Below are positions 8,793 through 23,992 of a stretch of 64,000 bases of DNA, in pieces. The notes under the pieces were generated by a model. That model ran no database searches. It was given only the letters and a program-made list of their open reading frames with translations, and had not been told where the DNA came from. How positions within the stretch are numbered: the first letter of the stretch is position 1; each line of letters opens with the position of its first letter. Source of the stretch: an uncultured Thermodesulfobacteriota bacterium (GTDB taxonomy: Bacteria; Desulfobacterota; B13-G15); the NCBI GenBank assembly GCA_964543765.1, contig CAZIZI010000005.1, positions 6,121-70,120 on the forward strand, given 5' to 3'. The translations under genes and the position numbers were made by a program.

Positions 8793-8812
8793 GCGAACCC
8801 CTTTCTTGGAGA

Positions 8813-10066
8813 ATGCGTCCTTTGAGTTTTGATGAGTTCGTGGGACAGGAACATCTTTTAGGGGAAAAGGGGCCTTTGAGAAGGATGATAGAGTCCAAAA
8901 GGGTTATTTCGTTTTTGCTTTGGGGGCCTCCCGGCTGTGGGAAGACCACCTTGGGAGAACTTTTTGCCAAGGCCATAAGGGCCCATTTCGTTTACGGAAG
9001 TGCGGTACTTTGGGGTTTGAAAGAAGTAAGAGATGCAATAGTTGAGGCTCAAAAGCGATTAAGAGCCGGACAGAGGACCATACTTTTCCTTGACGAGATC
9101 CATCGGTTTAACCGGGCCCAGCAAGATGCCCTTCTCCCTTGGGTTGAAAAAGGTACCATTATCCTCATAGGTTCAACCATTAATAACCCCTCCTTTGGAA
9201 TTATTCCTTCGCTTTTATCGCGATTAAGGGTTTTTACCCTTCGAGCTTTAAGGGATGATGAGGTTCTTCTTATCTTAAAAAGGGCGCTTTCCGATCCTGA
9301 GAGGGGACTTGGGGCCTTTAAGATTGAACTTGAGGATGGGGTTTTGGAGCTTATTGCCTCTCTTTCTCAGGGTGATGCTCGTTGGGCTTTAAATACGCTG
9401 GAGATGGTTTTCATTTTGGCCGAAGAAAGAAACGGAAAAAAGTTTATAGGGAAAGAAATCGTTCTTCAATCAACTCAGAAACCCCTTCTTTACGATCGGG
9501 AAGGCGAGGAGCATTACAACCTGATAAGCGCCTATCAAAAGTCCATAAGGGGCAGTGATCCCGATGGGGCCATCTACTGGCTTGCGAGAATGCTCGAATC
9601 GGGAGAGGACCCCCTTTATATAGCGAGAAGGATGATCGTATGTGCTGCCGAGGACATAGGCTTGGCCGACCCGATGGCGCTCCTTGTCGCCGTAAGCGCC
9701 CTTCAAGCCTTTCAAATTTTGGGGCAGCCCGAAGGAGAGCTGGCCTTAGCTGAAGCGACCCTTTATCTGGCCACAGCCCCCAAATCCAATTCCGCCATGG
9801 TGGCTCTTGAGAAGGCTCGAGAAGAGGTGAAGGAAAAAGGGGCTATTCCGGTGCCTCTTCATTTGAGAAATGCCCCTACGAAGTTATTAAAGGAATTGGG
9901 CTATGGCAAAGATTACCTTTATCCCCATGATTACAAAGAAGGGTTTGTAGAACAAACATATCTGCCCGAAGGCCTTAAAGGAGGGTATTATCGACCTTCG
10001 GAAAGGGGCTATGAGAAGGAGATTTCTCAGAGGCTTTTAAAGTGGTGGAAGGACAGGTGGAAATGA
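8813..10066 (+). CDS. rarA: replication-associated recombination protein A (AAA+ ATPase RarA/MgsA)
   Basis: WGPPGCGKTTL Walker A, DEIHRFN sensor and MgsA C-terminal domain. Start trimmed to ATG 8813, inside the longer track ORF. Confidence 0.85.
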   Translation: MRPLSFDEFVGQEHLLGEKGPLRRMIESKRVISFLLWGPPGCGKTTLGELFAKAIRAHFVYGSAVLWGLKEVRDAIVEAQKRLRAGQRTILFLDEIHRFNRAQQDALLPWVEKGTIILIGSTINNPSFGIIPSLLSRLRVFTLRALRDDEVLLILKRALSDPERGLGAFKIELEDGVLELIASLSQGDARWALNTLEMVFILAEERNGKKFIGKEIVLQSTQKPLLYDREGEEHYNLISAYQKSIRGSDPDGAIYWLARMLESGEDPLYIARRMIVCAAEDIGLADPMALLVAVSALQAFQILGQPEGELALAEATLYLATAPKSNSAMVALEKAREEVKEKGAIPVPLHLRNAPTKLLKELGYGKDYLYPHDYKEGFVEQTYLPEGLKGGYYRPSERGYEKEISQRLLKWWKDRWK

Positions 10067-11334
10067 GATATTTCCTCTGTGATTTTCACGTTCATAGCTC
10101 CTTCAGTCGGGCCACAAGCCCTGAGATGAACCTAGAAGGTCTTGTTCGGTGGGGAAAGATTAAGGGTTTGAGTATTGTGGGAACGGGTGATTTTACCCAT
10201 CCTTCTTATTTTGCGGAGATTAAGGAAAAGCTTGAGGAAAGCGAACCAGGGATTTATCGTCTTAAAAAGGGAGAACGGTCGGTTGGGCTTATAATTACCG
10301 GAGAGGTTTGCAATATCTTTGATCAAGGTCCTAAGAAAAATCGCCGGGTTCACACTTTAATTTTCGTCCCCAATATTGAGACTGCTGAAAAGATAAATAA
10401 ACTTCTTTCCCATTACGGGGATCTTTCTCAGGACGGAAGGCCCACGTTCACCTTTCCGGTTAAGGACTTGGTGAAGATGGTGCTTGATTGTTCTGAGGAT
10501 TGTCTTATTGTTCCTGCTCATGCCTGGACTCCCTGGTTTTCGGTTTTTGGGGCCAATTCGGGGTTTGATTCGTTGGAAGAATGTTTTGAAGAAGAGGCGA
10601 AATACGTTTATGCCATTGAGACCGGGCTTTCCTCAAACCCTCAGATGAACTGGCGCATTTCAAATCTGGATAGAATTTCCATAATCTCCAACTCCGATGC
10701 CCATTCGCCAAGACATGTAGCTCGGGAGGCTACTGCCTTTTGTTGTGAGCTTTCCTATTACGAGATAGTTAGGGCGATAAAGGAAAAGGATCCGAAAGGG
10801 CTTGCCTTCACGGTCGAGTTTTTCCCTGAAGAAGGCAAATACCATTACGATGGTCATAGGATTTGTGGGGTTTTGTTCTCTCCCAAGGAGACAAAGGCTC
10901 ACAATTACTTATGCCCCAAATGCGGCAAACCTTTAACCGTTGGGGTTATGCACCGAGTGGAGGAGTTGGCCGATAGACCCGAGGGCTTCATTCCACCTGG
11001 GGCCATCCCTGCTATACATATCATTCCTCTTGAGGAGATAATCGCCGAAGCCTTAGGCGTTGGGAAGGGTTCTAAAGCCGTTGATCGGGAGTATTTCCGG
11101 TTGATAGAACAAGGAGAATCGGAATTTAAGGTCCTTCTTGAGCTTCCTCCTGAGGAGCTTCGAAGGATTGCGCCTCCAAAAATATATGAGGGGATCCTCC
11201 GAGTCCGTAAGGGTGAACTTGAGATTGTTCCGGGGTTCGATGGGGTTTATGGTAAAATAAAAATCTTTCCGGATTCTCGGGATGAGACTCCCAGGGACGA
11301 AAAGGTCCCAGAAACCCAGATGAAGCTTTTCTGA
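10063..11334 (+). CDS. endonuclease Q family protein (PHP domain plus Zn ribbon)
   Basis: DFHVHSSFSRA, GTGD, HTLIFVP, PAHAWTPW, NSDAHSP, CPKCGKP and C-terminal VPGFDGVYGKIKI follow the EndoQ motif order as I remember it. ATGA start/stop overlap with rarA. Confidence 0.7.
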   Translation: MRYFLCDFHVHSSFSRATSPEMNLEGLVRWGKIKGLSIVGTGDFTHPSYFAEIKEKLEESEPGIYRLKKGERSVGLIITGEVCNIFDQGPKKNRRVHTLIFVPNIETAEKINKLLSHYGDLSQDGRPTFTFPVKDLVKMVLDCSEDCLIVPAHAWTPWFSVFGANSGFDSLEECFEEEAKYVYAIETGLSSNPQMNWRISNLDRISIISNSDAHSPRHVAREATAFCCELSYYEIVRAIKEKDPKGLAFTVEFFPEEGKYHYDGHRICGVLFSPKETKAHNYLCPKCGKPLTVGVMHRVEELADRPEGFIPPGAIPAIHIIPLEEIIAEALGVGKGSKAVDREYFRLIEQGESEFKVLLELPPEELRRIAPPKIYEGILRVRKGELEIVPGFDGVYGKIKIFPDSRDETPRDEKVPETQMKLF

Positions 11335-12767
11335 TGCCCCAGCTCTCGGAAGAATTCTTGGTTTTTTTGGAAGACCTTTTGGGTGAGGAAAAGGGGGCCT
11401 TTCTTTCCACAATAGGCCTTAAATCACCTCCGTTTTTCAGAATAAATACCCTGAGGACCGATGACGAAAAGGCCTTAAAGCTTTTGGAGGAAGAGGGTTT
11501 TAAAGCCCTTCCTTTAGATGGCCTTCCTCATGCCTATTCGGTCTTAGAGGAACCATTTCCTTTGGGATGTAGCTTTTCCCACTACCTGGGTAACATTTAC
11601 CTTCAAGACCCAAGCTCCATGGTTCCTCCTTTGGTGCTTGAACCAAAAGAAGGGGAGCTTGTTGTTGATGTGGCTTCGGCTCCGGGGTCAAAAACCACCC
11701 AAATGGCCTCTCTTATGGGGAATAAGGGACTTATTCTGGCCAATGAGGTATCGGTTAAGCGATCCAAATCCCTTTCCTACAATTTGATGAAGCTCGGGGT
11801 GATAAATGCGGTAGTAACCCTTCTTGATGGGAATCGTTTGGGGAAGCTTTACTTTGAGACGTTTGATAAGGTGCTCTTGGATCCTCCTTGTAGTGCTCTG
11901 GGAACGCTTAAGACCTCAGTTGAACCCTTAAAATGGTGGAAGATGAAGCGATCGGAAAAGCTCTCCCATTTACAATGGAACCTTCTTGTAAGCGCCATTA
12001 AAGCCTTAAAACCGGGTGGGATTCTGGTTTATTCCACCTGTACGATTGTCCCCTTAGAAAACGAGGCCCTGATCTCACGAGCGGTAAAAGAATACGGGCT
12101 TGAGATCGAGGAGATAAGATGGAATGCCTTCAAGGCAAGAGCTGGTCTTAAGGAGTTTAGAGGTGAAAGATTCGTAGAGGGGATAGAACGCACAATAAGG
12201 ATTTATCAACATGAAGTACCAGGTGAAGGCTTTTTTATCGCCAAATTAAGAAAAGTCCGAGAAAATAAACCTCCTAAAGAACGACCCCCGTTGGAACCTT
12301 TGCCATTAGTTGACAGATGGGACAATAGGGTAAAGAGCTTTTTGGATGTTCTTACCGATCACTTTGGCCTCTCTCAGGATCTCTTTGAAGGGTTTTTGTT
12401 TGAAAGGGCTAAGGAACTTCGCATCTATCCCCTTGAGGCCAAAAACATGTCTTTTTATAAGTACAGTCATCGAGGCCTTCCTCTGGTTAAATTAGAGGGA
12501 AGCTTTCCCATTTTAACTACCTGGGGAGCCCAATTTTTAAGCAAATGGGCCACCAAAAACGTGATCGACCTAAAGGATCCTAAGGAGTTGCTCTTCTTTT
12601 TGAAACATAAACCCATTCCCCTTGAACCAAACCGGAAAGGTCAACAGATAGTGCTTTATAAAGGGCATCCAGTGGGATATGGGATAGCCTCCGGTGGTTA
12701 TTTAAAAAGCCGAGCCAAAGCCAGAAAGGAAGTCAGATGGCCTTTTTGCCTTTTTCCTCCTCCTTAA
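11334..12767 (+). CDS. NOL1/NOP2/Sun-family RNA m5C methyltransferase (RsmF-like, with C-terminal extension)
   Basis: DVASAPGSKTTQ (motif I), LLDPPCSALG (motif IV) and YSTCTIVPLENE. 1-nt TGATG overlap with the preceding gene. Confidence 0.75.
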   Translation: MPQLSEEFLVFLEDLLGEEKGAFLSTIGLKSPPFFRINTLRTDDEKALKLLEEEGFKALPLDGLPHAYSVLEEPFPLGCSFSHYLGNIYLQDPSSMVPPLVLEPKEGELVVDVASAPGSKTTQMASLMGNKGLILANEVSVKRSKSLSYNLMKLGVINAVVTLLDGNRLGKLYFETFDKVLLDPPCSALGTLKTSVEPLKWWKMKRSEKLSHLQWNLLVSAIKALKPGGILVYSTCTIVPLENEALISRAVKEYGLEIEEIRWNAFKARAGLKEFRGERFVEGIERTIRIYQHEVPGEGFFIAKLRKVRENKPPKERPPLEPLPLVDRWDNRVKSFLDVLTDHFGLSQDLFEGFLFERAKELRIYPLEAKNMSFYKYSHRGLPLVKLEGSFPILTTWGAQFLSKWATKNVIDLKDPKELLFFLKHKPIPLEPNRKGQQIVLYKGHPVGYGIASGGYLKSRAKARKEVRWPFCLFPPP

Positions 12768-12770
12768 GTT

Positions 12771-12799
12771 TTGACAATTTTTAAACTTTCTTATAGAGT
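12771..12799 (+). promoter_or_regulatory. sigma70-like promoter (TTGACA, 17-nt spacer, TAGAGT) ending 6 nt before the ATG, implying a leaderless or near-leaderless mRNA
   Basis: Near-consensus hexamers. No SD sequence is present before ATG 12806. Confidence 0.4.
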
Positions 12800-12805
12800 G
12801 CTTCT

Positions 12806-14827
12806 ATGGTGCGGTTGAAGGGGCTAGTGCTTCCTTTTTTAGCCTTTTTGATCCTTTTCTCCTTAAGACTTTATCAAGCCAATTTTATCTTCAAGGAAAA
12901 AGAGTTTTATTTTTGGGGCAAAAACATTCCCCTGCTTTCTTCTTCTGACGGTTATTACTTTTTGCGCCTTGCCCATCTTTTTAAAGAAGGTTCCTATAAA
13001 GGGAAAGCACCTGATCCCTTGAGGAATGCCCCTGATAATCAACTTAACCCTGATTCCGAAAGGGCCGTGAGGTTTCCCTCGATTCCTCCTCTTATTTCGG
13101 TTCTTTTGGCCTTTTTGTCTTATTTGACGGGGGTTTCTCCCGAGAGGGTTTTTGTGGTTTTTCCATTAATCCCCTTTTTGGGCTCTCTTTTAGCCTTTCC
13201 GCTTTATGGAATAGGGAAGAGGCTTTGGGGAGAGCTATGTGGTTTTGGTATGGCTTTAGGGGGTGGGTTATGTCTTGAGTACGTCATAAGGACCGACCTT
13301 TTGAGGATCGATACTGAAGCAATAGCTTTGGTGTTTTTCTTTGCGGTTATTTATTCCATGTTTTTGCTCCTTGAGGATTTCAATCTGAAAAACCTGATCT
13401 TGTTTAGCATTTTCGTTCATCTTTACCAGTGGTGGTACAGCCACCCAGGTTTACTCTTACCCCTTTTGGTGGCTTACGGTTTGACCTTTTTTTTGGTCGA
13501 AAAATTATCCCTTAAGGAATCGGCAAAAAGAACGCTTATTTTAGCCCTTTTTTCAAATCCCTTAATACTTTTCAACGGGATTTTTAACCTTTTGCAGATG
13601 ATAAGTGGCTATATACCTGGGCTTTTGCCCGAACAATTGGGCTTTATACCTCGTTCGGTTTTTGCTCGCTCAGTAAGCGAACTGCAAAGGCTTCCCATTA
13701 AGGTCGTTCTTTCCATGGTTTCAAGTCATTATGTGATTGGCTTCTTAGGTCTTTTTGGCTTTTTGGTTATTTTTCTTAAAACCAGAAGGCCCCTTTTGAT
13801 CTCCCCTCTTTTTATACTTGGCCTAATGAGCCTTTTTGGAGCGAGGCGTTTTATGATATGGCTTGGCCCCTTTGTAGGGCTTGGCCTTGGGGTTTTGCTT
13901 CAATATTGCTTTGAGGTCTTAAAGGGAAGGTTAAAATTTAATCCCGTACTCATAAAGGTGGCTTTATTGATCTTATTGCTTCTTTCAAGCGTTTCCCCTA
14001 AAAGTCTGACTTTTGTTCCCCTTTGCCCCTACGGGAGGCCCCTTTTGGAAGGAATAAAGGAGCTCGAAAGGATAACTCCGGAAGGAAGTTTCGTATGGTC
14101 CTGGTGGGATTACGGTTATGTTATCTCCCTTGTAGCCAAAAGGCCCGTTTATCATGATGGAGGAAGTTGGGGAGGGCCAAAGAGCATTCTTGTGGCAAGG
14201 TCATTGGCCTTAGATGATCCCGAAAAAGCCTATAACATCATTAACGGCACCACCTCCCTTGGAGAAGAGGGGATAAGGGAGCTTCTTGAAAAGGGGGAAA
14301 GTCCTTCTTCCATAATAAGCCAGATAGAGAACGGGCTTTACAATAAGGAGTTGAAAAGTAAGATTTACCTTCTTTTAACGGGTGATGACATAAGTAAATT
14401 TTTTTGGATCTCCTTTTTTGGAACTTGGGATCCCGAAAGGGAAAAGGCAGAACACCTTTTTTACTTTCCCCTTGGTTTATGCAAGATGAATGAGGAAAGG
14501 ATAAGGTGTCAAAATGGGATTTTTGAGCTTAAAAAAGGGATCTTACAATTAAGGGGAGGGGACGTTATAAAGGTAGGAAGGGTCAAGATGGTTGAACTAG
14601 ATGATAGGGATTTTCCTCAAAAAAGGGAAAACCTGAAAGAAGGGGATGGTTTTTTCCTTATTTTAGTGAAAAAGAAAGACCATCTTTTTGGATGGGTGGC
14701 TCATCCCAAGGTCCAAAGCACCATGTTTCAAAGGCTTTTCTTTGAGGAGGGTGAAGTCGGAAACTTCAAGCTCGTTTTTTCAAATTTCCCTTATCTTCGA
14801 GTTTTTGAGGTAACTGAAAGAAGATGA
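12806..14827 (+). CDS. oligosaccharyltransferase, PglB/STT3 family (N-glycosylation catalytic subunit)
   Basis: About 13 TM helices. SSDGYYFLRLA in the first external loop resembles PglB NDGYAFAEGARD. WWDYGY lies at 14102-14119, followed by HDGGSWGGPKS...SLALDDPEKA, which aligns to PglB VDGGKHLGKD...SLSKDEQAA. Confidence 0.75.
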   Translation: MVRLKGLVLPFLAFLILFSLRLYQANFIFKEKEFYFWGKNIPLLSSSDGYYFLRLAHLFKEGSYKGKAPDPLRNAPDNQLNPDSERAVRFPSIPPLISVLLAFLSYLTGVSPERVFVVFPLIPFLGSLLAFPLYGIGKRLWGELCGFGMALGGGLCLEYVIRTDLLRIDTEAIALVFFFAVIYSMFLLLEDFNLKNLILFSIFVHLYQWWYSHPGLLLPLLVAYGLTFFLVEKLSLKESAKRTLILALFSNPLILFNGIFNLLQMISGYIPGLLPEQLGFIPRSVFARSVSELQRLPIKVVLSMVSSHYVIGFLGLFGFLVIFLKTRRPLLISPLFILGLMSLFGARRFMIWLGPFVGLGLGVLLQYCFEVLKGRLKFNPVLIKVALLILLLLSSVSPKSLTFVPLCPYGRPLLEGIKELERITPEGSFVWSWWDYGYVISLVAKRPVYHDGGSWGGPKSILVARSLALDDPEKAYNIINGTTSLGEEGIRELLEKGESPSSIISQIENGLYNKELKSKIYLLLTGDDISKFFWISFFGTWDPEREKAEHLFYFPLGLCKMNEERIRCQNGIFELKKGILQLRGGDVIKVGRVKMVELDDRDFPQKRENLKEGDGFFLILVKKKDHLFGWVAHPKVQSTMFQRLFFEEGEVGNFKLVFSNFPYLRVFEVTERR

Positions 14828-15396
14828 GGGGTCTTTTAATAATTTTCTTAAGTGTTCTTTTTCTTTTCCCTTCTTTGGGCCTTTCACTTGAGGGAAAGGT
14901 CATAGAGGTTTTTGATGGTGATACCATATTGGTTTTAATTGATGGGCAAGAGGTAAAAGTGAGGCTTTATTGTATAGATGCCCCTGAGCTTTTACAACCC
15001 TATGGGAGAACTGCCAAGGATTTCTTATCGAGACTCCTTTTGGAGAAAAACGTTAAGGTAAAAGAGAGAGGAACTGACCAGTATGGGCGGGTTTTGGGAG
15101 AGGTATTTCTTGATGGGGAGATCTCGGTAAATGAGGAGCTCGTAAAAAGCGGGATGGCCTGGGTTTACAGAAAATACTGTAAGATCCCTTCCTATTTTAC
15201 CCTCGAAAAAACGGCAAGGGAAAATAGAGTTGGCTTATGGGAAGATGAAAGCCCCATTCCCCCCTGGGAATACCGTAAAAAAGAAAGGGAGAGAGGAATT
15301 GAGCTGGGGAATACGTATTTTCTTTTAGTCCTTTTACTTTTAGTGCTTTTTCTAAGCCTCAGTTGGAGAAGAAAAGGAAGAAGGAGAAAAAATTAG
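14824..15396 (+). CDS. SNase-like thermonuclease, secreted with a C-terminal membrane anchor
   Basis: VFDGDTILV...VRLYCIDAPE is the staphylococcal nuclease motif. N-terminal signal peptide; C-terminal hydrophobic segment plus RRKGRRRKN tail. ATGA overlap with the OST gene. Confidence 0.75.
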   Translation: MRGLLIIFLSVLFLFPSLGLSLEGKVIEVFDGDTILVLIDGQEVKVRLYCIDAPELLQPYGRTAKDFLSRLLLEKNVKVKERGTDQYGRVLGEVFLDGEISVNEELVKSGMAWVYRKYCKIPSYFTLEKTARENRVGLWEDESPIPPWEYRKKERERGIELGNTYFLLVLLLLVLFLSLSWRRKGRRRKN

Positions 15397-15397
15397 C

Positions 15398-15426
15398 TTG
15401 ACAAACACCTTTTTATGGCATTAAAT
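15398..15426 (+). promoter_or_regulatory. sigma70-like promoter (TTGACA, 17-nt spacer, TTAAAT) for the pilin genes
   Basis: -35 at 15398-15403 and -10 at 15421-15426. AAGGAGGTGGAGG RBS before ATG 15511. Confidence 0.45.
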
Positions 15427-15510
15427 GTATTAGATGAAACAAAGGGATTCTCCAGAAGTTTGAATTGAGTTAAAATTTTTAAAATTTTAAACCTTTAAAG
15501 GAGGTGGAGG

Positions 15511-16008
15511 ATGGAAGTTTTAAGTGTTTTAAAGAAAAGGGTGAAGGCGAAAAAGGGTTTCACGCTGATTGAGTTGATGATCGTTGTTGCCATTTTGGGC
15601 ATTTTGGCCGCCATAGCTATTCCCACCTATATGGATTATACGAAAAGGGCGAAGGTAAGTGAGGCAATAAGCTTGCTTTCGGGAATGGCGAATGCCATAG
15701 CGGAGTATCATACTTCATATGGAAGTATGCCAACTAGCATAGACGATATTGGAGGAGGAAAAACAAGTAGATATGTGACCAGTATGACGTGGGGAGGAAG
15801 AGAGACATACGGCAACAACACTTATTGTTCCATAAATGCAACCCTTGGCAACATTGGAACAGGAGTTGATAGTAAGACGCTTACCCTTTATGTGATTTAT
15901 AGGGCAAATAATGAGACTTATGATAAATGTTGGGAATGGAGCATTGAGGATAAATACGTTCCTACAAGCGTTCGAGAAAAGAGATTTAATACTCCTAACT
16001 GTCCATGA
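15511..16008 (+). CDS. type IV pilin (prepilin with class III signal)
   Basis: KKG|[22 protein letters not shown] has Gly-1, Phe+1 and Glu+5. Three N-x-S/T sequons lie in the C-terminal globular part. Confidence 0.85.
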
Positions 16009-16036
16009 TCTTAAAACTTCTTTCTTAAAATAACCC

Positions 16037-16070
16037 AAGGCCTGGGGCCTTTTGGTTCCAGGCCTTTTAA
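16037..16070 (+). terminator. intrinsic terminator-like hairpin between the two pilin genes
   Basis: AAGGCCTGG (16037-45) pairs with CCAGGCCTT (16058-66). TTTTAAAA follows and abuts ATG 16072. Confidence 0.45.
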
Positions 16071-16071
16071 A

Positions 16072-16509
16072 ATGAAGATGAAGAAGGGTTTGACTTTACT
16101 TGAAGTGATGATTGTGGTTGCCATAATTGGGATTTTGGCAGCGATTGCCATTCCTTCCTATACTAAGTATGTGAAAAGGGCAAAAAGAGCTGAAGCTTTT
16201 AATGCCTTAATGACCATTCATGCGGCTCAAGAGATGTATAAGGCAGAACATGGAGTTTATACCGATAATTGGTCAAAACTTCCTGGGTGTTCCCCGAATA
16301 TGGCCAAGGAGTATACGATTTACCTTAATTTTAGTGATGGCAATTACACCGCCACTGCGGTTCCCTATGGAAGACAAGCAGGGGACTACTGTTTTAGGAT
16401 TTCTTATAACGGAAGTAAGGAGTGTGCCGTTCATTTTCCCACGGGAAACTGTACAGGTGTTCAATGTTGCCAATCTTTCCAAGAGTGTTCCTGGGAAACC
16501 CTTCGTTAA
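16072..16509 (+). CDS. type IV pilin-like protein, Cys-rich, with 4 N-glycosylation sequons
   Basis: MKMKKG|[22 protein letters not shown] (Leu+1, Glu+5). Sequons are NFS, DGNYT, NGS and NCT; 9 Cys in the C-terminal 80 aa. No SD sequence is evident. Confidence 0.75.
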   Translation: MKMKKGLTLLEVMIVVAIIGILAAIAIPSYTKYVKRAKRAEAFNALMTIHAAQEMYKAEHGVYTDNWSKLPGCSPNMAKEYTIYLNFSDGNYTATAVPYGRQAGDYCFRISYNGSKECAVHFPTGNCTGVQCCQSFQECSWETLR

Positions 16510-16529
16510 GGGTTGCCTCCTTCTTTTTT
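16497..16529 (+). terminator. weak terminator-like hairpin overlapping the stop of the second pilin gene
   Basis: AACCCTT-cgtt-AAGGGTT stem-loop (16497-16514) with a T-run at 16521-16529. Stem is GC-poor. Confidence 0.3.
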
Positions 16530-16572
16530 AGGTGCTAACCTTACTTTAGGCTTTTTAAAAAAGAGGTGAGAA

Positions 16573-17907
16573 ATGGTCTTAAGAAATGGTTACCAGGAAA
16601 GGGTGAGAAGGATCTATCGCTTTATAAGCGAAAACTTTTACCTTAATCGACCTGATCTTGAGGTCAAGGGGGAAAAGTATAACTCGGCCCTTCTTTTTGG
16701 GATCTTAACAGCCCTTTATGGTGGAAAGGAGCTTATAATAGGGGAACCGGGTCTTGGTAAGACCACCTCGGCCGAATACATAAGTTGTCTCATTTACGGT
16801 ATACCCCTTGGCGTCATATGGGGAAGCGAGGTCTCGGGGCATCCCGAACAGACTGAAGAAAAGATCGTGGGAAGGCCAGATCTGGGAGCCCTAAACCAGG
16901 GAAAAGAGGTTGTTGTTTGGAGTAATTTTGTTCAGCTTCCGGTTAAAATCGTCGATGAGATAAATAGGCTCCCCGAAACCAAACAATCGATGATTCTTGA
17001 TGGAGTTGATAGGGGTAATTGGGAGTACCTTAACGAGATGATCATAAATGACGAATACGCCCTTTTTGCCACCGCCAACTATCAAGATCGAGGCACTAAC
17101 ACCATAATAGCGCCTTTAGTGGATAGGTTTGACGTGATGGTCGAATCAAGGCATCCAGGGCCCAATCTGGCCTTTTACATAGGAAGAAGATCAAGGTTTG
17201 ATAATCCTTTAAGACACCAGGAGTTTGAGGAAAGGTATCACAAGCTTTTAAGATCTCAGATCCCCTATAAGGAGAAGCTTCAAGGTCTTGAGGAACTTTC
17301 CGAGGTTTTTAGGGATTACCTGAAGGAGAAGGTGGGAATCGAGAGTCTGAGCAAAGAGGAGCGTTTTTCCATAAGGAAAGAGATGGCCCAAATGCCCCTT
17401 GACCTTGATGCCAATGCCTTTCTAAGGATGGTTCTTGCGGAACTTTCCTTCTGTCACCGTTATGGTCAGAAGAGAAGTGTTGAAGGATGCCCCGAGGGGT
17501 GCCATTATACGGGTTATCTCTGTTATCACGTTAAAAACTGCGCCTCAAACAGGCTTCCCATCTCGGTTATAGGGTATTCTCAAGCCTTGGCTTGGTTCCT
17601 TGAGGACGATGAGGTGGACCTTGAGCATGTAAGGACGGTTCTTCCTTTTACTTTGGCTCATAGAATCCAATGGCGCGACTCCTATATATCCAAAAAGGAA
17701 GGGGAGGGGAGAAATGATCCCCTTCAGATCTATCTGGCCAAAGAGGCTACCGAGGAGATCTTCCATCGTTATACTGAACAAAGGGATTATCTTCTTGATG
17801 CTTTGGCTATTGCCTCAAGGGCCTTTGAGGGAGAGGCGGTTGAACCCCTTGATGGGGATCATCCGATTTATGAGGAGATAAAAAAGGAGATAGCGAGTTT
17901 AAGATGA
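16573..17907 (+). CDS. MoxR-like AAA+ ATPase with a Cys/His-rich insertion
   Basis: GEPGLGKTT Walker A; KIVDEINRLPETKQSMILDGV Walker B/sensor as in the MoxR DEINRAxPxTQSALLEAM; ATANYQD...LVDRFD. CHRYG...CPEGCHYTGYLCYHVKNC at 17452-17541. Confidence 0.7.
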   Translation: MVLRNGYQERVRRIYRFISENFYLNRPDLEVKGEKYNSALLFGILTALYGGKELIIGEPGLGKTTSAEYISCLIYGIPLGVIWGSEVSGHPEQTEEKIVGRPDLGALNQGKEVVVWSNFVQLPVKIVDEINRLPETKQSMILDGVDRGNWEYLNEMIINDEYALFATANYQDRGTNTIIAPLVDRFDVMVESRHPGPNLAFYIGRRSRFDNPLRHQEFEERYHKLLRSQIPYKEKLQGLEELSEVFRDYLKEKVGIESLSKEERFSIRKEMAQMPLDLDANAFLRMVLAELSFCHRYGQKRSVEGCPEGCHYTGYLCYHVKNCASNRLPISVIGYSQALAWFLEDDEVDLEHVRTVLPFTLAHRIQWRDSYISKKEGEGRNDPLQIYLAKEATEEIFHRYTEQRDYLLDALAIASRAFEGEAVEPLDGDHPIYEEIKKEIASLR

Positions 17908-18608
17908 AGAATCCGTTTGAAGAGTTTCGCGGGCAGAGTACAAGGTCAAAGGGGAAAGAACTCCCCTTAGATAGGATCCTCAAAGCCAAAGAGGAGACCC
18001 TTAATCAAATCCTCAAAGGATACGAGAACCTTTTGAAAAACGAGGCAAAGGATCTGGTTTGGCTTATGCAATATAGTACGGTTATTAAGGCCTATAGCAT
18101 AGCGGAAGAGGCCATAAAGGGCATAAATTATGCGGCTGAGGACGTCGAGGAGTTTTGTTATGTGCTGGATAAGACCGATCAGGTCCCCTATTTGATCACT
18201 GGACCGGCAGGGGTTTATATCTCGGCCCTTTGCAATAACGCTCAAGAGGAGGAGATCGTTTTAAGGCTTCAGGATGTGGGTATAAAGATAAACCTTCTTG
18301 GTTACCGACTTCCCGAAGGAAAGAGGCTTATCATTGAAGGGAATGTAGGGGATTTTACGGGGATAAGCCTTGAAGGAGGTGAGCTTATAATTGAGGGAAG
18401 CGCCAAAAATTACACCGGGGCAGGGATGAAAAAGGGCAGGATCATAGTCAAGCAGAACGTGGGCTTTAACACGGGCCACGGGATGACCGGCGGTGAGATC
18501 CTTGTGGGTGGCCGGATCAAGGGGCTTGGAAAGGTGGTTGGAGGGAAGATTTACGAGAAAGGGCAGTTGATCTTTCCAAGCGATGACTATCGGCCATATT
18601 ATTTTTAA
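17904..18608 (+). CDS. GXGXG-motif beta-helix domain protein (glutamate synthase domain-3 / FwdC-like), unknown N-terminal domain
   Basis: C-terminal GNVGDFTGISLEGGELIIEGSAKNYTGAGMKKGRIIVKQNVGFNTGHGMTGGEILVGG shows repeated GxxGxxG. ATGA overlap with the ATPase gene. Confidence 0.6.
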   Translation: MKNPFEEFRGQSTRSKGKELPLDRILKAKEETLNQILKGYENLLKNEAKDLVWLMQYSTVIKAYSIAEEAIKGINYAAEDVEEFCYVLDKTDQVPYLITGPAGVYISALCNNAQEEEIVLRLQDVGIKINLLGYRLPEGKRLIIEGNVGDFTGISLEGGELIIEGSAKNYTGAGMKKGRIIVKQNVGFNTGHGMTGGEILVGGRIKGLGKVVGGKIYEKGQLIFPSDDYRPYYF

Positions 18609-18620
18609 ATTTAAAGAAGC

Positions 18621-20177
18621 ATGTTCGAGGAATTTTTGAGAAAGGTCTGGCCTAAGGTAAGGCGTAATCATTTATTTCCTCAGATACCTCCACCCCAACT
18701 TGTGGAATCCGATGAAGAGGTGGCTTTGGAGATTAAAAGCAAACAGATGACGATCAATGTGAATTACCTTCAAGTTTTGACCGAAAAGATGAACCCCGAG
18801 GATGCTTTGCAGGCCCTTCTTGATCACGGGATATCCCATTACATGTATTGTCCGTGGGACTTTAACACCCATCTGATGCTTTATTCCGAAGCAAAAAAGG
18901 TCTTGAGGGATAAAAGGCTTGCCCAAAAGGCCGCTTCCTACTTTATGGATGTAGTGGCCAATACCTATTGTGTGAAAGAACGTGAGACCAAGATCCCCGA
19001 GCTTTATAGGCATCTGCCGAAGGAAGGGATCCAGAGGATTTTAGCCCTCCTTTATCAGGTGATATGGGGTATAGACTTAGGAGCTCAAGGGGAAGAGGAG
19101 AGCATAAAAAGGCTTTCGCGGATCCCTTATCTGGAAAAGCGACTGTGGAAGGAGAGCATCAAGAAGTTTGCCAAAACGTTGGAGGAGTTTCTCCAGAAAG
19201 AGATGGAGAGCGAGCAAAAAAGCTCTAAAAAAGCCCAAAACCCTTTGGGTGAGCATTCCATTGAAAACTATACGCTTGAAGAAATCGATAAGGGGTTAAG
19301 GGACTTCGCCAGTTCTGTGGATGATATAACGGAGTTTAGGGAAACAGTTGAGGACTTAAAGGATGAGCTTGCGGCGATGGGTTATACCGTAGGGGGTATG
19401 GGGCGAGGGGCAGGTAATCCTATAGATGCGGATCTTCTTTATTACATGAAGCTTGCCGAGAATTACACGCTTCCCATTAAGAAACTGCCCATGGAGAAAA
19501 GCGGGGCCCTTCACCCTCATTCGCATTCTCCGTGGGAAGTAGGGAAGCCCGTTCAGGACATAGATCCCTGGACTAGCTTCGGTAAGATAATGCCCGGTTT
19601 AACTCAGACGTGGGTGAGACGCGAAGGCGAAGTCTTCGGCGAGATGGAGAAGATCCCGGATTGTCTTATAATCATAGATTCCTCGGGAAGCATGACCAAT
19701 CCTCGCGAAAGGCTTTCTTATGCGGTTTTGGGTGCGGCCTGTGCCTGTAACGCTTACCTGAAAAACGGCAAGAAGGTGGCGGTTTATAACTTCTCGGATG
19801 CCTTCAGGGGCAATAAGCTGATCCTTGATTTCTGTAAGGAAAAAGAGTCGATTTATTGGGCCATATGTAGATACTTTGGCGGAGGCACGGCCATTGATCT
19901 TAACGATGTGATGTATCTACTTAAGCAGGCGGAGAAACCCGATATCTTCATCATCACCGATATGCAGATAACCAATTTGGAAAAGCTGATCGACTTCTTT
20001 AACTCCATTGAAAATAGGGTCACAGCCGTTCACATAGGAGAGAACATTTACGCCACGAGATTCCGAGAAGGGTTAAAGCAGAAGAATAACGTCTCCCTTT
20101 TCTTGGTGAAGGATAAGGAGGATATCCCCAAGATAGTGCTGGGAAAAGTAAGAGAATATTTCACCTCCCCTTTTTAA
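18621..20177 (+). CDS. von Willebrand factor A (VWA) domain protein with a MIDAS motif; N-terminal 330 aa uncharacterised
   Basis: CLIIIDSSGSMTNP (DxSxS at 19677-19691) followed by a typical VWA fold. No signal peptide. Confidence 0.65.
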   Translation: MFEEFLRKVWPKVRRNHLFPQIPPPQLVESDEEVALEIKSKQMTINVNYLQVLTEKMNPEDALQALLDHGISHYMYCPWDFNTHLMLYSEAKKVLRDKRLAQKAASYFMDVVANTYCVKERETKIPELYRHLPKEGIQRILALLYQVIWGIDLGAQGEEESIKRLSRIPYLEKRLWKESIKKFAKTLEEFLQKEMESEQKSSKKAQNPLGEHSIENYTLEEIDKGLRDFASSVDDITEFRETVEDLKDELAAMGYTVGGMGRGAGNPIDADLLYYMKLAENYTLPIKKLPMEKSGALHPHSHSPWEVGKPVQDIDPWTSFGKIMPGLTQTWVRREGEVFGEMEKIPDCLIIIDSSGSMTNPRERLSYAVLGAACACNAYLKNGKKVAVYNFSDAFRGNKLILDFCKEKESIYWAICRYFGGGTAIDLNDVMYLLKQAEKPDIFIITDMQITNLEKLIDFFNSIENRVTAVHIGENIYATRFREGLKQKNNVSLFLVKDKEDIPKIVLGKVREYFTSPF

Positions 20178-20190
20178 ATCCCTTCAAAAG

Positions 20191-20219
20191 TTGACACCCA
20201 TCTGGATGAAGCTTATTTT
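20191..20219 (+). promoter_or_regulatory. sigma70-like promoter upstream of lon (TTGACA, 17-nt spacer, TATTTT)
   Basis: -35 at 20191-20196. GAGGTGGAGGGAG RBS before ATG 20257. Confidence 0.35.
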
Positions 20220-20256
20220 AAGACCTGAGAAAAATTAAAGGACGAGGTGGAGGGAG

Positions 20257-22614
20257 ATGCTGTTTATACCACGGGAAAAGCGGGAGAAGAGAAATATTCC
20301 GAAGTTTCTGCCCATACTTCCTCTGAGGGGAGCTGTGCTTTTTCCAGAACTGGTCCTGCCCATCATGGTAGGGCGTAAAAAGTCCATTAAGCTCATCGAC
20401 GATGCCATGGAGGGCGAAAGGATCATCGGGGTTTTAACCCAATATAACCCCGAAGACGAGGATCCAAATCCCCAAGAGCTTTATCAGGTAGGGGTGGCCG
20501 CTCACCTCTTAAGGGTGGTGAAGGAGTTGGATGGGACCCAAAGGGTCATAGTCCAAGGGCTTGAGAGGATTAGAGCGAAAAGGTTCCTTCAATCGGATCC
20601 TTACTTTGTGGCTGAAGTGGAAGTCTTGGAGGTTCCTCCTTATGTGAGTGGTTCCGACTTAGAGGTCGAAGCCTTGGTGAGGACCATAAGGTCGCTTTTC
20701 CAAAAGGCAGTAGAACTTGCTTCTTATCTGACCAATGAGCTCAAAAATGCGGTGATGAGCATCCGGGATCCCAATGTGGTGGCTGACTTAATTGCGGCCA
20801 ATTTAAATATAAAGGTCCAAGAGAAACAAGAGGTCCTTGAGACGGTTGACCTGAAGGAAAGGCTAAAAAAAGTTCACTTCCTTTTGGCCAGGGAGGTTCA
20901 GATCCTTGAGCTCGGCAATAAGATCCAATCCCAAGTGAAGGAAGACATAGACAGGGCCCAAAGGGAATACTACCTGAGGGAACAGCTGAAGGCCATAAAA
21001 AGGGAGCTTGGGGAGCTTGATGATCACGCCCAGGAGATAAAGCAGTTGAGGGAAAAAATAGAAGCAGCCCAGATGCCCGAAGAGGCTCGCAAGGCCGCCG
21101 AGAAAGAACTCGAAAGGCTTTCCAAGATGCCCCCCGCCTCAGCCGAATATACGGTGGCAAGGACCTATCTGGATTGGTTGATAGAACTTCCTTGGTCAAA
21201 GTCAACGGAAGATAACCTAGACATAGCTCATGCAAGACAGGTCCTTGATGAGGATCATTATGATCTTGAAAAGGTCAAGAAAAGGATCCTCGAGTACTTA
21301 GCCGTTAGGAAGCTAAAAAACGACATGAAAGGCCCTATACTTTGCTTCGTCGGCCCTCCGGGGGTGGGGAAAACCTCGTTGGGCAAATCCATCGCTAGGG
21401 CAATGGGAAGGAAATTCGTGAGGATTTCGCTTGGTGGCATTCGGGATGAAGCCGAGATAAGGGGTCATCGAAGGACTTATGTAGGGGCTTTGCCTGGTAA
21501 GATAATCCAAGGGATAAAACGAGCAGGGGTTAATAATCCTGTATTTATGCTCGATGAGGTGGACAAGATCGGCATAGACTTCCGAGGGGACCCGGCGGCT
21601 GCGCTTCTGGAGGTTTTAGATCCCGAACAGAACCACGCCTTCAGCGACCATTATATCGATGTTCCCTTTGACCTTTCTAAGGTGCTTTTCATAGCCACTG
21701 CCAATGTGCTTGATACGGTACCTCCTGCCCTTAGGGATCGAATGGAGGTTCTGGAGTTACCGGGTTATACGGACGATGAGAAACTTATGATAGCCAAAAA
21801 CCACCTTATTCCTCGTCAGCTCCAAGAGCATGGGTTAACCGAAGAGGATTTGGAGTTTGAGGACGATGCCATTATCACCATCATTAACTCCTATACTCGA
21901 GAAGCAGGCGTAAGGAACCTGGAAAGGGAGATAGCGGCCATATGTCGTCAGGTGGCAAAGGAAGTTGCCGAAGGTAAAAGGGAAAAGGTGATTGTAAGGA
22001 AGGATAATGTCTACAAATTCCTTGGGCCGGAGAAATTTTATCCTGAAGTGGCCGAAAGGATTACCACCCCAGGTATCGCTACCGGCTTAGCTTGGACCCC
22101 TACCGGTGGAGACATCATCTTTATCGAGGCCACCAGGATGAAAGGCAGAAAAGGCCTGATCCTCACCGGACACCTTGGGGAGGTGATGAAGGAATCGGCT
22201 CAAGCGGCTTTGAGCTATGTGCGGTCTAAGGCTAGGGACTTCGGCATACCCGAGGACTTTTTCTCCAAAAGCGATATCCACATACATGTCCCAGCCGGGG
22301 CTATTCCGAAAGACGGACCTTCGGCCGGGATCGCCATCTTCGTGGCCTTGGTTTCCCTTTTGACCAACAGACCCGTAAAAAGCGATGTGGCAATGACCGG
22401 AGAGATTACCTTGAGGGGACAGGTTCTACCTGTGGGAGGCATAAAGGAGAAGGTATTGGCTGGGAAAAGGGCGGGTATAAAGACCATCATCCTTCCGAAA
22501 CGCAATGAGAAAGACGTGGAGGAACTCCCCGATCACGTGAAACAGGGCTTAAAGTTTCACTTCATCCAAAGGGCGGAGGAAGCTTTGGATGTGGCGCTGG
22601 TGAAGGAGGAGTAA
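20257..22614 (+). CDS. lon: ATP-dependent protease La (Lon)
   Basis: LON N-terminal domain, GPPGVGKTSLGKSIA Walker A and proteolytic DGPSAGIA serine motif. 785 aa. Confidence 0.95.
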   Translation: MLFIPREKREKRNIPKFLPILPLRGAVLFPELVLPIMVGRKKSIKLIDDAMEGERIIGVLTQYNPEDEDPNPQELYQVGVAAHLLRVVKELDGTQRVIVQGLERIRAKRFLQSDPYFVAEVEVLEVPPYVSGSDLEVEALVRTIRSLFQKAVELASYLTNELKNAVMSIRDPNVVADLIAANLNIKVQEKQEVLETVDLKERLKKVHFLLAREVQILELGNKIQSQVKEDIDRAQREYYLREQLKAIKRELGELDDHAQEIKQLREKIEAAQMPEEARKAAEKELERLSKMPPASAEYTVARTYLDWLIELPWSKSTEDNLDIAHARQVLDEDHYDLEKVKKRILEYLAVRKLKNDMKGPILCFVGPPGVGKTSLGKSIARAMGRKFVRISLGGIRDEAEIRGHRRTYVGALPGKIIQGIKRAGVNNPVFMLDEVDKIGIDFRGDPAAALLEVLDPEQNHAFSDHYIDVPFDLSKVLFIATANVLDTVPPALRDRMEVLELPGYTDDEKLMIAKNHLIPRQLQEHGLTEEDLEFEDDAIITIINSYTREAGVRNLEREIAAICRQVAKEVAEGKREKVIVRKDNVYKFLGPEKFYPEVAERITTPGIATGLAWTPTGGDIIFIEATRMKGRKGLILTGHLGEVMKESAQAALSYVRSKARDFGIPEDFFSKSDIHIHVPAGAIPKDGPSAGIAIFVALVSLLTNRPVKSDVAMTGEITLRGQVLPVGGIKEKVLAGKRAGIKTIILPKRNEKDVEELPDHVKQGLKFHFIQRAEEALDVALVKEE

Positions 22615-23807
22615 TGAGGGTTTTGCTTTTCGCTGGGAAAGGAGGAGTTGGTAAGACCAGTATCGCTGCCTCTACCGGTCTTCTGGCCGCAGAGCGCGGA
22701 TATAAGACCATTGTAGTATCCCTGGATACGGCCCATAATCTTTCGGATGTCTTTGAAGTGGGAGAAAACCTCTTTGATGTTAAGGGGGAACCGGTTGAGA
22801 TTTTTCCCAATCTATGGATTCAGGAGATCAACATCCAGGAGGAGATAAGGCGCCATTGGAAAGAGGTTCACGGCTATATTACCGCTCTATTCAGGGCTTC
22901 GGGGGTAAAGGAGATACTGGCCGAGGAGCTTGCGGTTTTGCCGGGCATGGAGGAGGTGAGCGGGCTTCTTTATCTTAACACCTACGCCAAGAAGGGAAGT
23001 TTCGACGTGGTGATTCTTGATTGTGCTCCTACTGGTGAGGCCATAAGGTTTGTGAGTTTACCCACCATCTTCGAGTGGTATATGAAGAAGTTCTTTAACC
23101 TCGAAAGAAAGATCGCTAAAGTTATAGGGCCTTTTGTGGAAAAGTTTTACAATGTCCCCATGCCTGAAGAGAGTTGTTTTGATGCGGTAGAGGAACTCTT
23201 CATGAGGCTCGATGGGGTTGAGAAGCTTTTAAACGATGCGCGGATAACTTCCGTTAGGCTTGTCACCAATCCTGAAAAAATCGTGGTGAAGGAGACCCAA
23301 AGGGCCTTTCTTTACTTCACGCTCTATGGGTTATGTGTGGACGGTGTGGTGGTCAACAAGGTGTTTCCCAAGGAACTGGAGGGTGAGTTTATAAAGGGGT
23401 GGCAGCTCCTTCAGGATAGATACCTGGAGGAGATAGAGACCTACTTTGCCCCTCTTCCGGTCTTTAAGGTTCCCCTTTACGAGGATGAGGTGAGTGGGAT
23501 TGAACGCTTAAAGAGGCTCGGGAAAGACCTTTACGGGGAGAATGACCCGATTCAAGTCTTCCGAAGTGAATCTCCCTTCAATTTCTACAAGGAGGATGGA
23601 CTTTATAAACTTTCGTTGAAAATGCCCTTTGTCACCCGGGATAAGATTCATCTGAGTAAAAGAGGGGACGAGCTCATAATCGAAGTGGGTGTGTTCAAGA
23701 GACACGTGATACTCCCCAAAACGATAGCCTCTTTAAGCCCTCGTAAGGCAAGATTCGAAGGCGATAATTTGGTCATTTCCTTTGAGGAGGGCGAAAATGC
23801 AATATAA
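22614..23807 (+). CDS. ArsA/GET3-family ATPase with a C-terminal Hsp20/CS-like domain
   Basis: AGKGGVGKTS P-loop and DTAHNLSDVF GET3/ArsA signature. C-terminal beta-rich region resembles alpha-crystallin/CS. TAATG overlap with lon. Confidence 0.7.
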   Translation: MRVLLFAGKGGVGKTSIAASTGLLAAERGYKTIVVSLDTAHNLSDVFEVGENLFDVKGEPVEIFPNLWIQEINIQEEIRRHWKEVHGYITALFRASGVKEILAEELAVLPGMEEVSGLLYLNTYAKKGSFDVVILDCAPTGEAIRFVSLPTIFEWYMKKFFNLERKIAKVIGPFVEKFYNVPMPEESCFDAVEELFMRLDGVEKLLNDARITSVRLVTNPEKIVVKETQRAFLYFTLYGLCVDGVVVNKVFPKELEGEFIKGWQLLQDRYLEEIETYFAPLPVFKVPLYEDEVSGIERLKRLGKDLYGENDPIQVFRSESPFNFYKEDGLYKLSLKMPFVTRDKIHLSKRGDELIIEVGVFKRHVILPKTIASLSPRKARFEGDNLVISFEEGENAI

Positions 23808-23988
23808 ATGCCCAATGGCCCAACTGTTTGAGAGGATAGAAAGATTAAGGTCTCCACGTTCCCCTTTTTGGGAACATATGAGAAAGGCGAAAATAGAGGT
23901 TCTGGAAGCCCTTAAGAGCCTTCTCGAGGAGAAGATCTCCAAACTAAAAGAAGAAGGGGAAAAGCTGAAAAAAATAGAAGTGGAATAG
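23797..23988 (+). CDS. small hypothetical protein (63 aa, predicted coiled-coil)
   Basis: ATG at 23797 overlaps the arsA-like gene end by 11 nt. K/E-rich helical sequence. No family recognised. Confidence 0.3.
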   Translation: MQYKCPMAQLFERIERLRSPRSPFWEHMRKAKIEVLEALKSLLEEKISKLKEEGEKLKKIEVE

Positions 23989-23992
23989 GACC

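Follow-up and report, generated by a model that had tools for sequence, protein, structure and literature searches.

Bacterial type IV pilins are known as O-glycosylated proteins, and N-glycosylation of pilins and archaellins is held to be a trait of archaea. The O-linking enzymes PglL, TfpO and PglS belong to the Wzy_C superfamily. Here we describe a locus at positions 12806-20177, on the + strand, of a 64,000-nt stretch of bacterial DNA (the window, by which we mean the whole stretch), in which a PglB-type oligosaccharyltransferase (OST) of the STT3 family is encoded just upstream of two sequon-bearing type IV pilins, Pil1 and Pil2. We consider it fairly probable that these genes form a pilin glycosylation locus lying beside an unrelated module, and that the OST N-glycosylates both pilins of a type IV filament.

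Pilin-specific oligosaccharyltransferases (OTases) exist among the O-linking enzymes, TfpO and PglS being examples (PMC6385209), and PglL-type OTase genes are reported mostly to adjoin the genes of candidate target proteins (PMC3643930). The present locus shares with the Pseudomonas TfpO/PilO and Acinetobacter PglS-ComP systems a transferase gene adjacent to that of its presumed target, a PilE/ComP-class pilin: the OST gene is one gene away from that of Pil1 in the window, directly adjacent to it in related loci L002 and L005, and overlaps a pilin gene in L113 and L114. It differs in that those systems use Wzy_C O-OTases acting on a single Ser, whereas the window enzyme is an STT3 N-OST with predicted targets at Asn in N-x-S/T and several sites per pilin. 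In AglB-dependent N-glycosylation of archaeal type IV pilins and archaellins, too, an STT3-family OST goes with filament subunits that have several N-x-S/T sequons on the filament surface (e.g. PMC4390842, PMC11239922). Unlike these, the window has a diderm bacterial host (LpxB/D/K, KdtA, BamA, Skp), an OST whose model fits PglB better than AglB (template-modelling (TM) scores of 0.77 and 0.57) and pilins of the bacterial T4a type.

The best-described bacterial relative is Campylobacter PglB, with which the window OST shares a single-subunit STT3 type, a PglB-like fold, the D/D/E residues, an R375 equivalent and WWDYG; moreover, relatives of the window OST adjoin PglE/PglC/PglF-like genes (L041) or have an epimerase and two GT2 genes nearby (L018). 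The two differ in that their identity is low (17-18%), Met stands at the R331 position, no pgl cluster was found among the scanned window ORFs and the window OST has pilin neighbours. We know of no Campylobacter pgl locus placed beside type IV pilin genes, and the DxxK motif of the window OST sits at what we take to be the position of MxxI in PglB. PglB homologues in deltaproteobacteria and Aquificae (Desulfovibrio, Hydrogenivirga), distant bacterial PglB homologues of the same broad lineages as the window OST, have been known since at least 2015 from work that does not mention pilins, and some of them have no R331-type determinant and take sequons lacking an acidic residue at -2, the Desulfovibrio PglBs being relaxed in their sequon preference (PMC4894442). 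A literature search, with most subscription journals outside its coverage, turned up no account of bacterial type IV pilins N-glycosylated by a PglB-type enzyme or of a pilin-adjacent OST.

Organization of the locus

Profile searches bore out the seven genes and their families as named in the initial annotation, and all seven open reading frames (ORFs) are present on the + strand:

12806-14827, + strand: PglB-type OST (STT3 family, GT-C), 673 aa; Pfam STT3 and STT3-PglB_core
14824-15396, + strand: SNase-family nuclease; PF00565, 95 bits
15511-16008, + strand: Pil1, type IVa major-type prepilin; Pfam Pilin and N_methyl
16072-16509, + strand: Pil2, ComP/PilE-class type IV prepilin; Pfam ComP_DUS (62 bits) and N_methyl
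16573-17907, + strand: MoxR/ChlI-like AAA+ ATPase, first gene of module B; AAA_5/AAA_lid_2
17904-18608, + strand: GXGXG beta-helix protein (FwdC-like), second gene of module B; PF01493 below cut-off, NCBIfam FwdC-like
18621-20177, + strand: VWA-domain protein with MIDAS DSSGS, third gene of module B; VWA_2

The interval consists of a module A (12806-16509: OST, SNase and two pilins) and an unrelated module B (16573-20177: the AAA+/GXGXG/VWA triad). Genes for LpxK, KdtA, an MsbA-like protein, LpxB, LpxD, Skp and BamA lie inside the window, and these lipopolysaccharide and outer-membrane biogenesis genes mark the host as a diderm bacterium. Among genome records the closest is a metagenome-assembled genome (MAG) of an uncultured Thermodesulfobacteriota bacterium with a 90% identical OST, and a hot-spring-type metagenome contig (L032) is 100% identical over the OST region.

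The oligosaccharyltransferase

The OST passes both Pfam cut-offs (PF02516, 39 bits against 24.5; PF21436, 37 bits against 23), and its best PDB sequence match is Campylobacter lari PglB. Alignment with that enzyme equates D48 with D56, D169/E171 with D154/D156, E292 (in SVSE) with E319, R348 with R375, and WWDYG at 431-435 with WWDYG. Residues D48, D169, E292, R348 and W433-W434-D435 do not vary among 12 aligned sequences spanning 20-52% identity, and the DxxK motif is conserved or invariant in the family. The AlphaFold2 (AF2) model (pLDDT 86.9) combines a multi-helix GT-C membrane domain with a periplasmic domain and is nearest to PglB in Foldseek (5OGL, TM 0.77, E = 1.6e-24); TM is ∼0.6 against yeast and human STT3 and 0.57 against AglB, and the NCBIfam archaeal STT3 model scores the protein at 17 bits. 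Because the fit to 5OGL clearly beats those to eukaryotic STT3 and AglB, 'PglB-type' is, on this model, the correct label as a structural class. The protein misses the cut-off of the PglB equivalog model NF050801 (74 bits against 1300) and is only 17-18% identical to PglB; by sequence it is a distant homologue of PglB rather than its orthologue.

This distance from PglB, together with the side activity by which PglB itself releases free oligosaccharides, is what could be said for an STT3 homologue that is not a protein N-glycosylator in vivo and instead hydrolyses lipid-linked glycans to free oligosaccharides or uses a non-protein acceptor. We consider this very improbable, since WWDYG, the catalytic D/D/E triad, the R375 equivalent and DxxK are conserved or invariant family-wide, and conservation of the acceptor-peptide-binding WWDYG motif with the catalytic residues argues for a peptide Asn as acceptor.

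In C. lari PglB, R331 reads the acidic residue at -2 of the sequon (PMC4894442), although it is not the sole determinant of -2 specificity (Ollis et al., PMC4894442). The window OST has Met at this position, and D or E stands at -2 in just one of the eight pilin sequons (DGNYT); for both reasons the enzyme probably has no Campylobacter-type requirement for D/E at -2, pointing to a relaxed, plain N-x-S/T specificity. The periplasmic domain of the OST carries a sequon of its own (N480, IINGT, window 14243-14251). Both N477 and N480 are invariant in a 10-sequence family alignment, and N480 may be a self-glycosylation site.

Linkage of OST and pilin genes across genomes

We compared 111 loci with an OST, taken from the genomes of GTDB and the metagenomes of JGI; their OSTs form 21 clusters at 40% identity or above. 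True type IV pilin adjacency occurs in four of the 21: the query clade, L018, L019 and L024. Within the query clade the order OST-(SNase)-Pil1-Pil2 is found in every assessable locus, down to 45-53% OST identity. In L002 and L005 the OST is 52-53% identical, other genes lie upstream and the OST directly adjoins the pilins, while in L117, from the ∼45%-identity lineage of P0007, the OST C-terminus is followed by two pilins. The upstream neighbour of the block varies, being RsmF in the window, a FAD/FeS oxidoreductase insert in L030 and L031, and HisH/HisA in L002 and L005. The 1.6-Mb contigs Ga0527077_0006 and Ga0453288_0005 hold the locus with an OST 83% identical to that of the window. The insert (L030/L031:1037-4090, on 1.6-Mb contigs of close relatives with an 83% identical OST) is a gene for a 1017-aa FAD-binding/FeS/CCG oxidoreductase, on the opposite strand, between RsmF and the OST, so that the upstream boundary of the OST-pilin block is plastic.

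Outside the query clade, a Nitrospira-labelled MAG (L018) has a divergent PilS/PilR-like pair followed by pilin, pilin, OST, epimerase, B12-radical SAM, GT2 and GT2. The order PilS-PilR-pilin-pilin-OST is found in Aquificales (L019) and in two further Aquificota loci (L113 and L114), where the OST start overlaps the pilin stop. The cultured Persephonella atlantica (L112; GCA_016617615.1, JAACYA010000001.1:952924-966360), likewise of the Aquificota, has OST-pilin-pilin beside a divergent minor-pilin operon, and in a gammaproteobacterial MAG (L024) the OST lies beside a ComP/PilE-FimT-PilW-PilX minor-pilin operon. L112, L113 and L114 came from a profile search for which the OSTs of L018 and L019 served as seeds. 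In a rough neighbour-joining (NJ) tree the pilin-linked OST lineages are not each other's sisters.

The background frequency of pilin genes was estimated from 513 kb of sequence, in which 2 pilin-motif ORFs lie more than 3 kb from an OST. At this frequency, 0.41 of 21 lineages would be expected to have a pilin within 2.5 kb, against 3-4 observed (P = 0.008-0.0008). Uncounted were pilin-motif regex hits in L080 and L045, both spurious (the first in a non-coding frame, the second in a membrane protein), and one in L089, a GspG pseudopilin on the opposite strand with a transposase-like ORF between it and the OST. OST-adjacent pilins of different phyla share only the N-terminal helix, and on this ground we rejected a single mobile pilin-OST cassette with conserved pilins. 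Nor did we draw a link between the B12-radical SAM gene near the L018 OST and that at window 27137-28570, whose similarity is only at family level (29% identity).

These data uphold the genetic part of the claim that prompted the analysis, that a bacterial N-OST is tied to sequon-bearing type IV pilins: the block is conserved, it recurs in non-sister lineages and the pilins are enriched in sequons, as described below. They do not uphold the seven-gene cluster as one unit, the SNase being confined to a subclade and the triad occurring elsewhere with neither OST nor pilins.

Several further arrangements were seen among the OST relatives. At L049:254-8939, where the OST is 33% identical to that of the window and is the query clade's sister in the NJ tree, a PilB-type ATPase flanks and a pilin lies within 5 kb; three secreted paralogues that flank this OST have a common N-terminus, VQVLIYKDPGYQGDWA, and C-type lectin or DUF2341 domains, and may be another substrate set. 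A hot-spring metagenome contig (L041:1290-7896) has a bacillosamine-type pgl-like locus, in which a 33%-identical OST is immediately preceded by genes of PglE-like (DegT), PglC-like (Bac_transf) and PglF-like (Polysacc_synt_2) proteins. Three tandem OST paralogues lie on one strand in Desulfobaculum sp. SPO524 (L022:6552-13986). A pentapeptide-repeat protein gene adjoins the OST of Persephonella (L112:3739-4368), and the metagenomic protein P0172 (1065 aa) has pentapeptide repeats fused to an STT3/PglB core domain.

Pilins and their sequons

Both pilins have the features of a class III signal peptide: a short basic leader, Gly at -1, a hydrophobic helix and Glu at +5. The leader is of 16 aa in Pil1 (KAKKG/FTLIELMIV; PF07963, 38 bits) and 6 aa in Pil2 (MKMKKG/LTLLEVMIV; PF07963, 32 bits). 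The AF2 model of Pil2 (pLDDT 93.6) has the classic pilin fold, with a long helix (9-60) packed on an antiparallel sheet of four strands (81-121).

The pilins had been credited with three and four sequons; three is correct for Pil1 (N102, N109, N134), whereas Pil2 has five (N66, N86, N91, N113, N126). At 3.05 (Pil2) and 1.78 (Pil1) sequons per 100 aa the two rank first and second among 60 window ORFs, where the overall value is 0.29. Shuffling the globular part of Pil2 would lead one to expect 0.93 sequons, against its five (P<0.0005), and six Pil2 orthologues have 3-4 each (P = 0.002-0.02) at conserved alignment positions. Among 143 of the nearest Pil2-like pilins from a library of 1.84 billion proteins, the mean is 1.13 against 0.99 expected, with a maximum of 4 and none with 5. 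The model places the sequon Asn residues of Pil2 in the alpha-beta and C-terminal loops, in a turn and at the ends of strands. Across several lineages, 12 OST-adjacent pilins, which are not fully independent of each other, have 3.20 sequons per 100 aa, compared with 1.09 in 135 Pil2-like control pilins (Mann-Whitney P = 8e-7).

The globular domain of Pil1 is hypervariable and the fastest-evolving sequence of the locus: in L033 it is 58% identical to that of the window where its neighbours are 89-99% identical (OST 91%, triad 98-99%). Its sequons vary from one to eight among close strains, and their number reaches significance in L002 and L033 alone. All seven orthologues retain one sequon ahead of YDKCW, in the form NET, NGT or NES.

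Pil2 homologues beside Wzy_C proteins

A small test, set prospectively, covered three Pil2 homologues. P0208, encoded downstream of an OST (L117), has 3 sequons where 0.55 would be expected; P0207 has none, and P0206 has 2 against 1.10 expected. The last two are encoded at L115:3492-7848 and L118:225-5598, respectively, where the genes after the pilin trio encode a membrane protein of Wzy_C+TPR type and an ArnC-like polyprenyl-phosphate GT2, and no STT3 gene was found at these pilin loci. The Wzy_C+TPR and GT2 genes constitute a candidate pilin O-glycosylation cassette, standing where the window's clade has an N-OST. With the Wzy_C proteins as candidate O-OTases, the three cases look like an exchange of N-linked and O-linked pilin glycosylation enzymes at homologous loci.

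A pilin-linked or a general enzyme

A different explanation is that the OST is a general periplasmic N-glycosylation enzyme, or acts mainly on other proteins, that its pilin adjacency is inherited synteny and that the pilins are unmodified or O-glycosylated. C. jejuni PglB is such a general enzyme (PMC4894442). Most OST clusters, including the three largest, with Caldimicrobium among them (its context, L009, judged from ORF N-termini only), have no pilin neighbour; taken overall, the family is thus not dedicated to pilins, and the window OST could be general. Some related OSTs have housekeeping or pgl-like surroundings. Other results also count against N-glycosylation of the pilins by this enzyme. 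The three Pil1 sequons do not exceed the composition-based expectation (P = 0.27), and in the close strain L030 Pil1 has a single sequon. The high sequon density of the Aquificota pilins is accounted for by their N/S/T-rich composition, the control pilins are Pil2-like only, and the argument from non-sister lineages depends on a rough tree and a small lineage count. Among the scanned ORFs of the 64-kb window we found no lipid-linked-oligosaccharide or pgl-like glycan-assembly genes, and no flippase, prepilin peptidase or pilus assembly genes (PilB/C/D/M-Q). No glycan has been observed, and it is from genomic context and sequons that we infer pilin N-glycosylation.

Against a general enzyme, the adjacency recurs in non-sister lineages with varied gene orders, in some with start/stop overlap with a pilin; the Pil2 sequons exceed composition and their positions are conserved; unenriched Pil2 homologues pair with a Wzy_C-type candidate O-transferase; and the OST and pilins are alike in evolutionary rate and in GC content at third codon positions (GC3), as shown in the next section. 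We therefore regard a general enzyme as unlikely and retain N-glycosylation of Pil1 and Pil2 by the OST as the reading of module A.

Separation of the AAA+/GXGXG/VWA triad

In module B, the AAA+ protein matches AAA_lid_2 (26 bits) and AAA_5 (24 bits), and a Walker A motif (GEPGLGKT) and VDE were read from its sequence, as was the MIDAS motif DSSGS from that of the VWA protein, which matches VWA_2 at the cut-off (27 bits). The GXGXG protein, whose start overlaps the AAA+ stop codon, scores 26 bits with PF01493 (below cut-off) and 46 bits with an NCBIfam FwdC-like model. NCBIfam and PDB sequence searches gave no match for the AAA+ or the VWA protein. Like the CbbQ/CbbO, NorQ/NorD and RavA/ViaA pairs, module B would, as far as these matches go, have an AAA+ and a VWA (MIDAS) protein side by side; unlike them, it has a GXGXG beta-helix protein between the two. 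The triad would seem to be a MoxR-type system of Desulfobacterota/Thermodesulfobacteriota, widespread and as yet uncharacterised, that includes an additional beta-helix subunit.

The initial annotation had treated the seven genes as one unit. The packing of the genes on one strand suits this, as does the position of the triad, which comes after the pilins throughout the query clade wherever the contig reaches that far; MoxR-VWA pairs are known maturation chaperones, and the triad could on this view be a chaperone or assembly factor for a glycosylated filament. However, the distribution of the triad is its own. At least 960 VWA homologues were found at 55-96% identity, compared with nine proteins in the OST search. 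In L027 (CP070817) the AAA-GXGXG-VWA-Lon-KdsB-IclR-radical SAM synteny is kept with neither OST nor pilins upstream; in L028 and L029 the triad stands in an unrelated context, again without OST or pilins; and every pilin-linked OST locus outside the query clade lacks it. The triad also evolves far more slowly. Between the window and L002, OST, Pil1 and Pil2 are 52%, 51% and 56% identical, whereas AAA+, GXGXG, VWA and Lon are 84%, 84%, 77% and 91% identical, and AAA+ is 84-99% identical across loci whose OST is 52-91% identical. Finally, GC3 is 0.40-0.435 for OST, SNase, Pil1 and Pil2 (0.40 in the pilins) and 0.48-0.565 for the triad, Lon and ArsA (0.557 in VWA), and the closely packed same-strand run itself extends well beyond seven genes, from about 7716 to 24712.

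A seven-gene operon or unit was rejected because of the triad's distribution, its rate of evolution, its GC3 and the hairpin 3' of Pil1 (below), and we give next to no credence to a triad serving the filament; the claim falls because the triad is independent, slower-evolving, more widespread and found without OST or pilins, and the SNase is subclade-only. Module B would be a housekeeping-like AAA+/GXGXG/VWA system, syntenic here by descent.

The SNase and DNA uptake

The start of the SNase gene overlaps the OST stop codon by 4 nt. The DGDT, VRL, IDAPE and YGR motifs of the protein align to S. aureus thermonuclease, covering the Ca-binding/catalytic residues D21, R35, D40, E43 and R87. Reading by eye showed a signal-like segment at the N-terminus and, at the C-terminus, a hydrophobic helix with RRKGRRRKN after it; the protein contains no sequons. 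The gene is present only in loci whose OST is at least 82% identical. Its absence from L002, L005 and all other pilin-linked OST loci suggests that the SNase was added recently, in the closest subclade; it is not a core part of the OST-pilin system. Inserted there, it would be a membrane-anchored, periplasm-facing nuclease translationally coupled to the OST, with DNA processing in pilus-mediated uptake or scavenging of extracellular DNA as candidate roles.

The first of these roles would be part of a competence apparatus, in which Pil2 is a ComP-like DNA-binding pilin, the SNase processes incoming DNA and the OST decorates the filament, an extension of pilin N-glycosylation and not a replacement for it. 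Membrane nucleases process incoming DNA in Gram-positive competence, and the SNase, with its intact active site, secretion signal and anchor, is translationally coupled to the OST, its gene immediately preceding those of the pilins; Pil2 scores 62 bits with ComP_DUS and has ComP among its fold neighbours in the PDB. Yet ComP_DUS is a broad pilin family, and those neighbours are Neisseria PilE (first), ComP, PilX and PilV at TM about 0.5, with PilE outranking ComP. The fold search does not single out ComP, and Pil2 as a specific ComP-type DNA receptor was rejected. In addition, comEA, comEC and pilus retraction genes were absent among the scanned window ORFs, as is the SNase from L002, L005 and the remaining pilin-linked OST loci. 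We judge a competence apparatus quite improbable.

Putative regulatory elements and other features

The following elements were found around the module A genes:

12771-12799, + strand: putative sigma-70-like promoter, TTGACA-17-TAGAGT; consensus scan, 10/12 matches
15398-15426, + strand: promoter-like TTGACA-17-TTAAAT, 5' of Pil1 and directly 3' of the SNase stop; read by eye
16037-16066, + strand: 13-bp GC-rich hairpin then UUAAA, terminator- or attenuator-like, 3' of Pil1

The match at 12771-12799 is the best sigma-70-like one of the region and ends just 7 nt 5' of the OST ATG, which would imply a leaderless or very short-leader mRNA. The element at 15398-15426, weak evidence in itself, failed the scan's stricter -10 rule. 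The hairpin has a folding energy of -24.9 kcal/mol (z = -4.0; 0/200 shuffles equally stable), and counterparts of differing sequence lie 3' of Pil1 in L001, L030, L033 and L035 and 3' of the first pilin in L018 and L019. Its position would suit a major pilin gene that is strongly expressed and has an attenuator. As Aquificota loci have PilS/PilR, a sigma-54 promoter was sought near the pilins, with no match there and window-wide matches at or below chance; a search of the window for other structured RNAs or tRNAs also found none.

Elsewhere in the window, within the lpx cluster, one 406-aa ORF (46696-47916, - strand) joins a FabA/FabZ-like dehydratase domain to a complete LpxA (Hexapep and Acetyltransf_11), an apparent fabZ-lpxA gene fusion.

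Discussion

We propose the following pathway for module A. The OST would be an inner-membrane enzyme with its active site facing the periplasm. The prepilins would enter the inner membrane via their N-terminal helix, and their periplasmic globular domains would expose N-x-S/T sequons in loops and turns. The OST would then move a lipid-linked glycan, made by genes outside the window, en bloc to the sequon Asn before assembly, and the glycosylated pilins would build a type IV filament whose surface is covered in glycan. Such a coat may confer heat stability and solubility and may shield the filament from proteases and pilus-specific phages. The fast gain and loss of Pil1 sequons, from one to eight in close strains, may reflect selection on the filament surface by phage, protease or heat.

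Taking the pilin-linked lineages together, we advance tentatively that several deep-branching, mostly thermophilic lineages (Thermodesulfobacteriota, Aquificota and that of the Nitrospira-labelled MAG) may make pili N-glycosylated at multiple Asn residues via a dedicated pilin-linked PglB-type OST that needs no acidic residue at -2, and that N-OST and Wzy_C O-OTase may be swapped at homologous loci. Such pili would be the bacterial equivalent of the AglB-glycosylated pili and archaella of archaea.

The comparison removes a false lead, in that neither the MoxR/GXGXG/VWA triad nor the nuclease belongs to the core of the OST-pilin system. It also makes pilin N-glycosylation directly testable, in the cultured Persephonella atlantica with its OST-pilin-pilin locus. 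If the proposal is true, these lineages would be a source of thermostable OSTs with probably relaxed sequon needs, which are sought for glycoengineering (cf. the Desulfovibrio PglB work; PMC4894442). N- and O-linked solutions could then swap at one pilin locus, and a pilin-linked bacterial N-OST would break the dichotomy between O-glycosylated bacterial and N-glycosylated archaeal pilins, adding a new class of natural PglB substrates.

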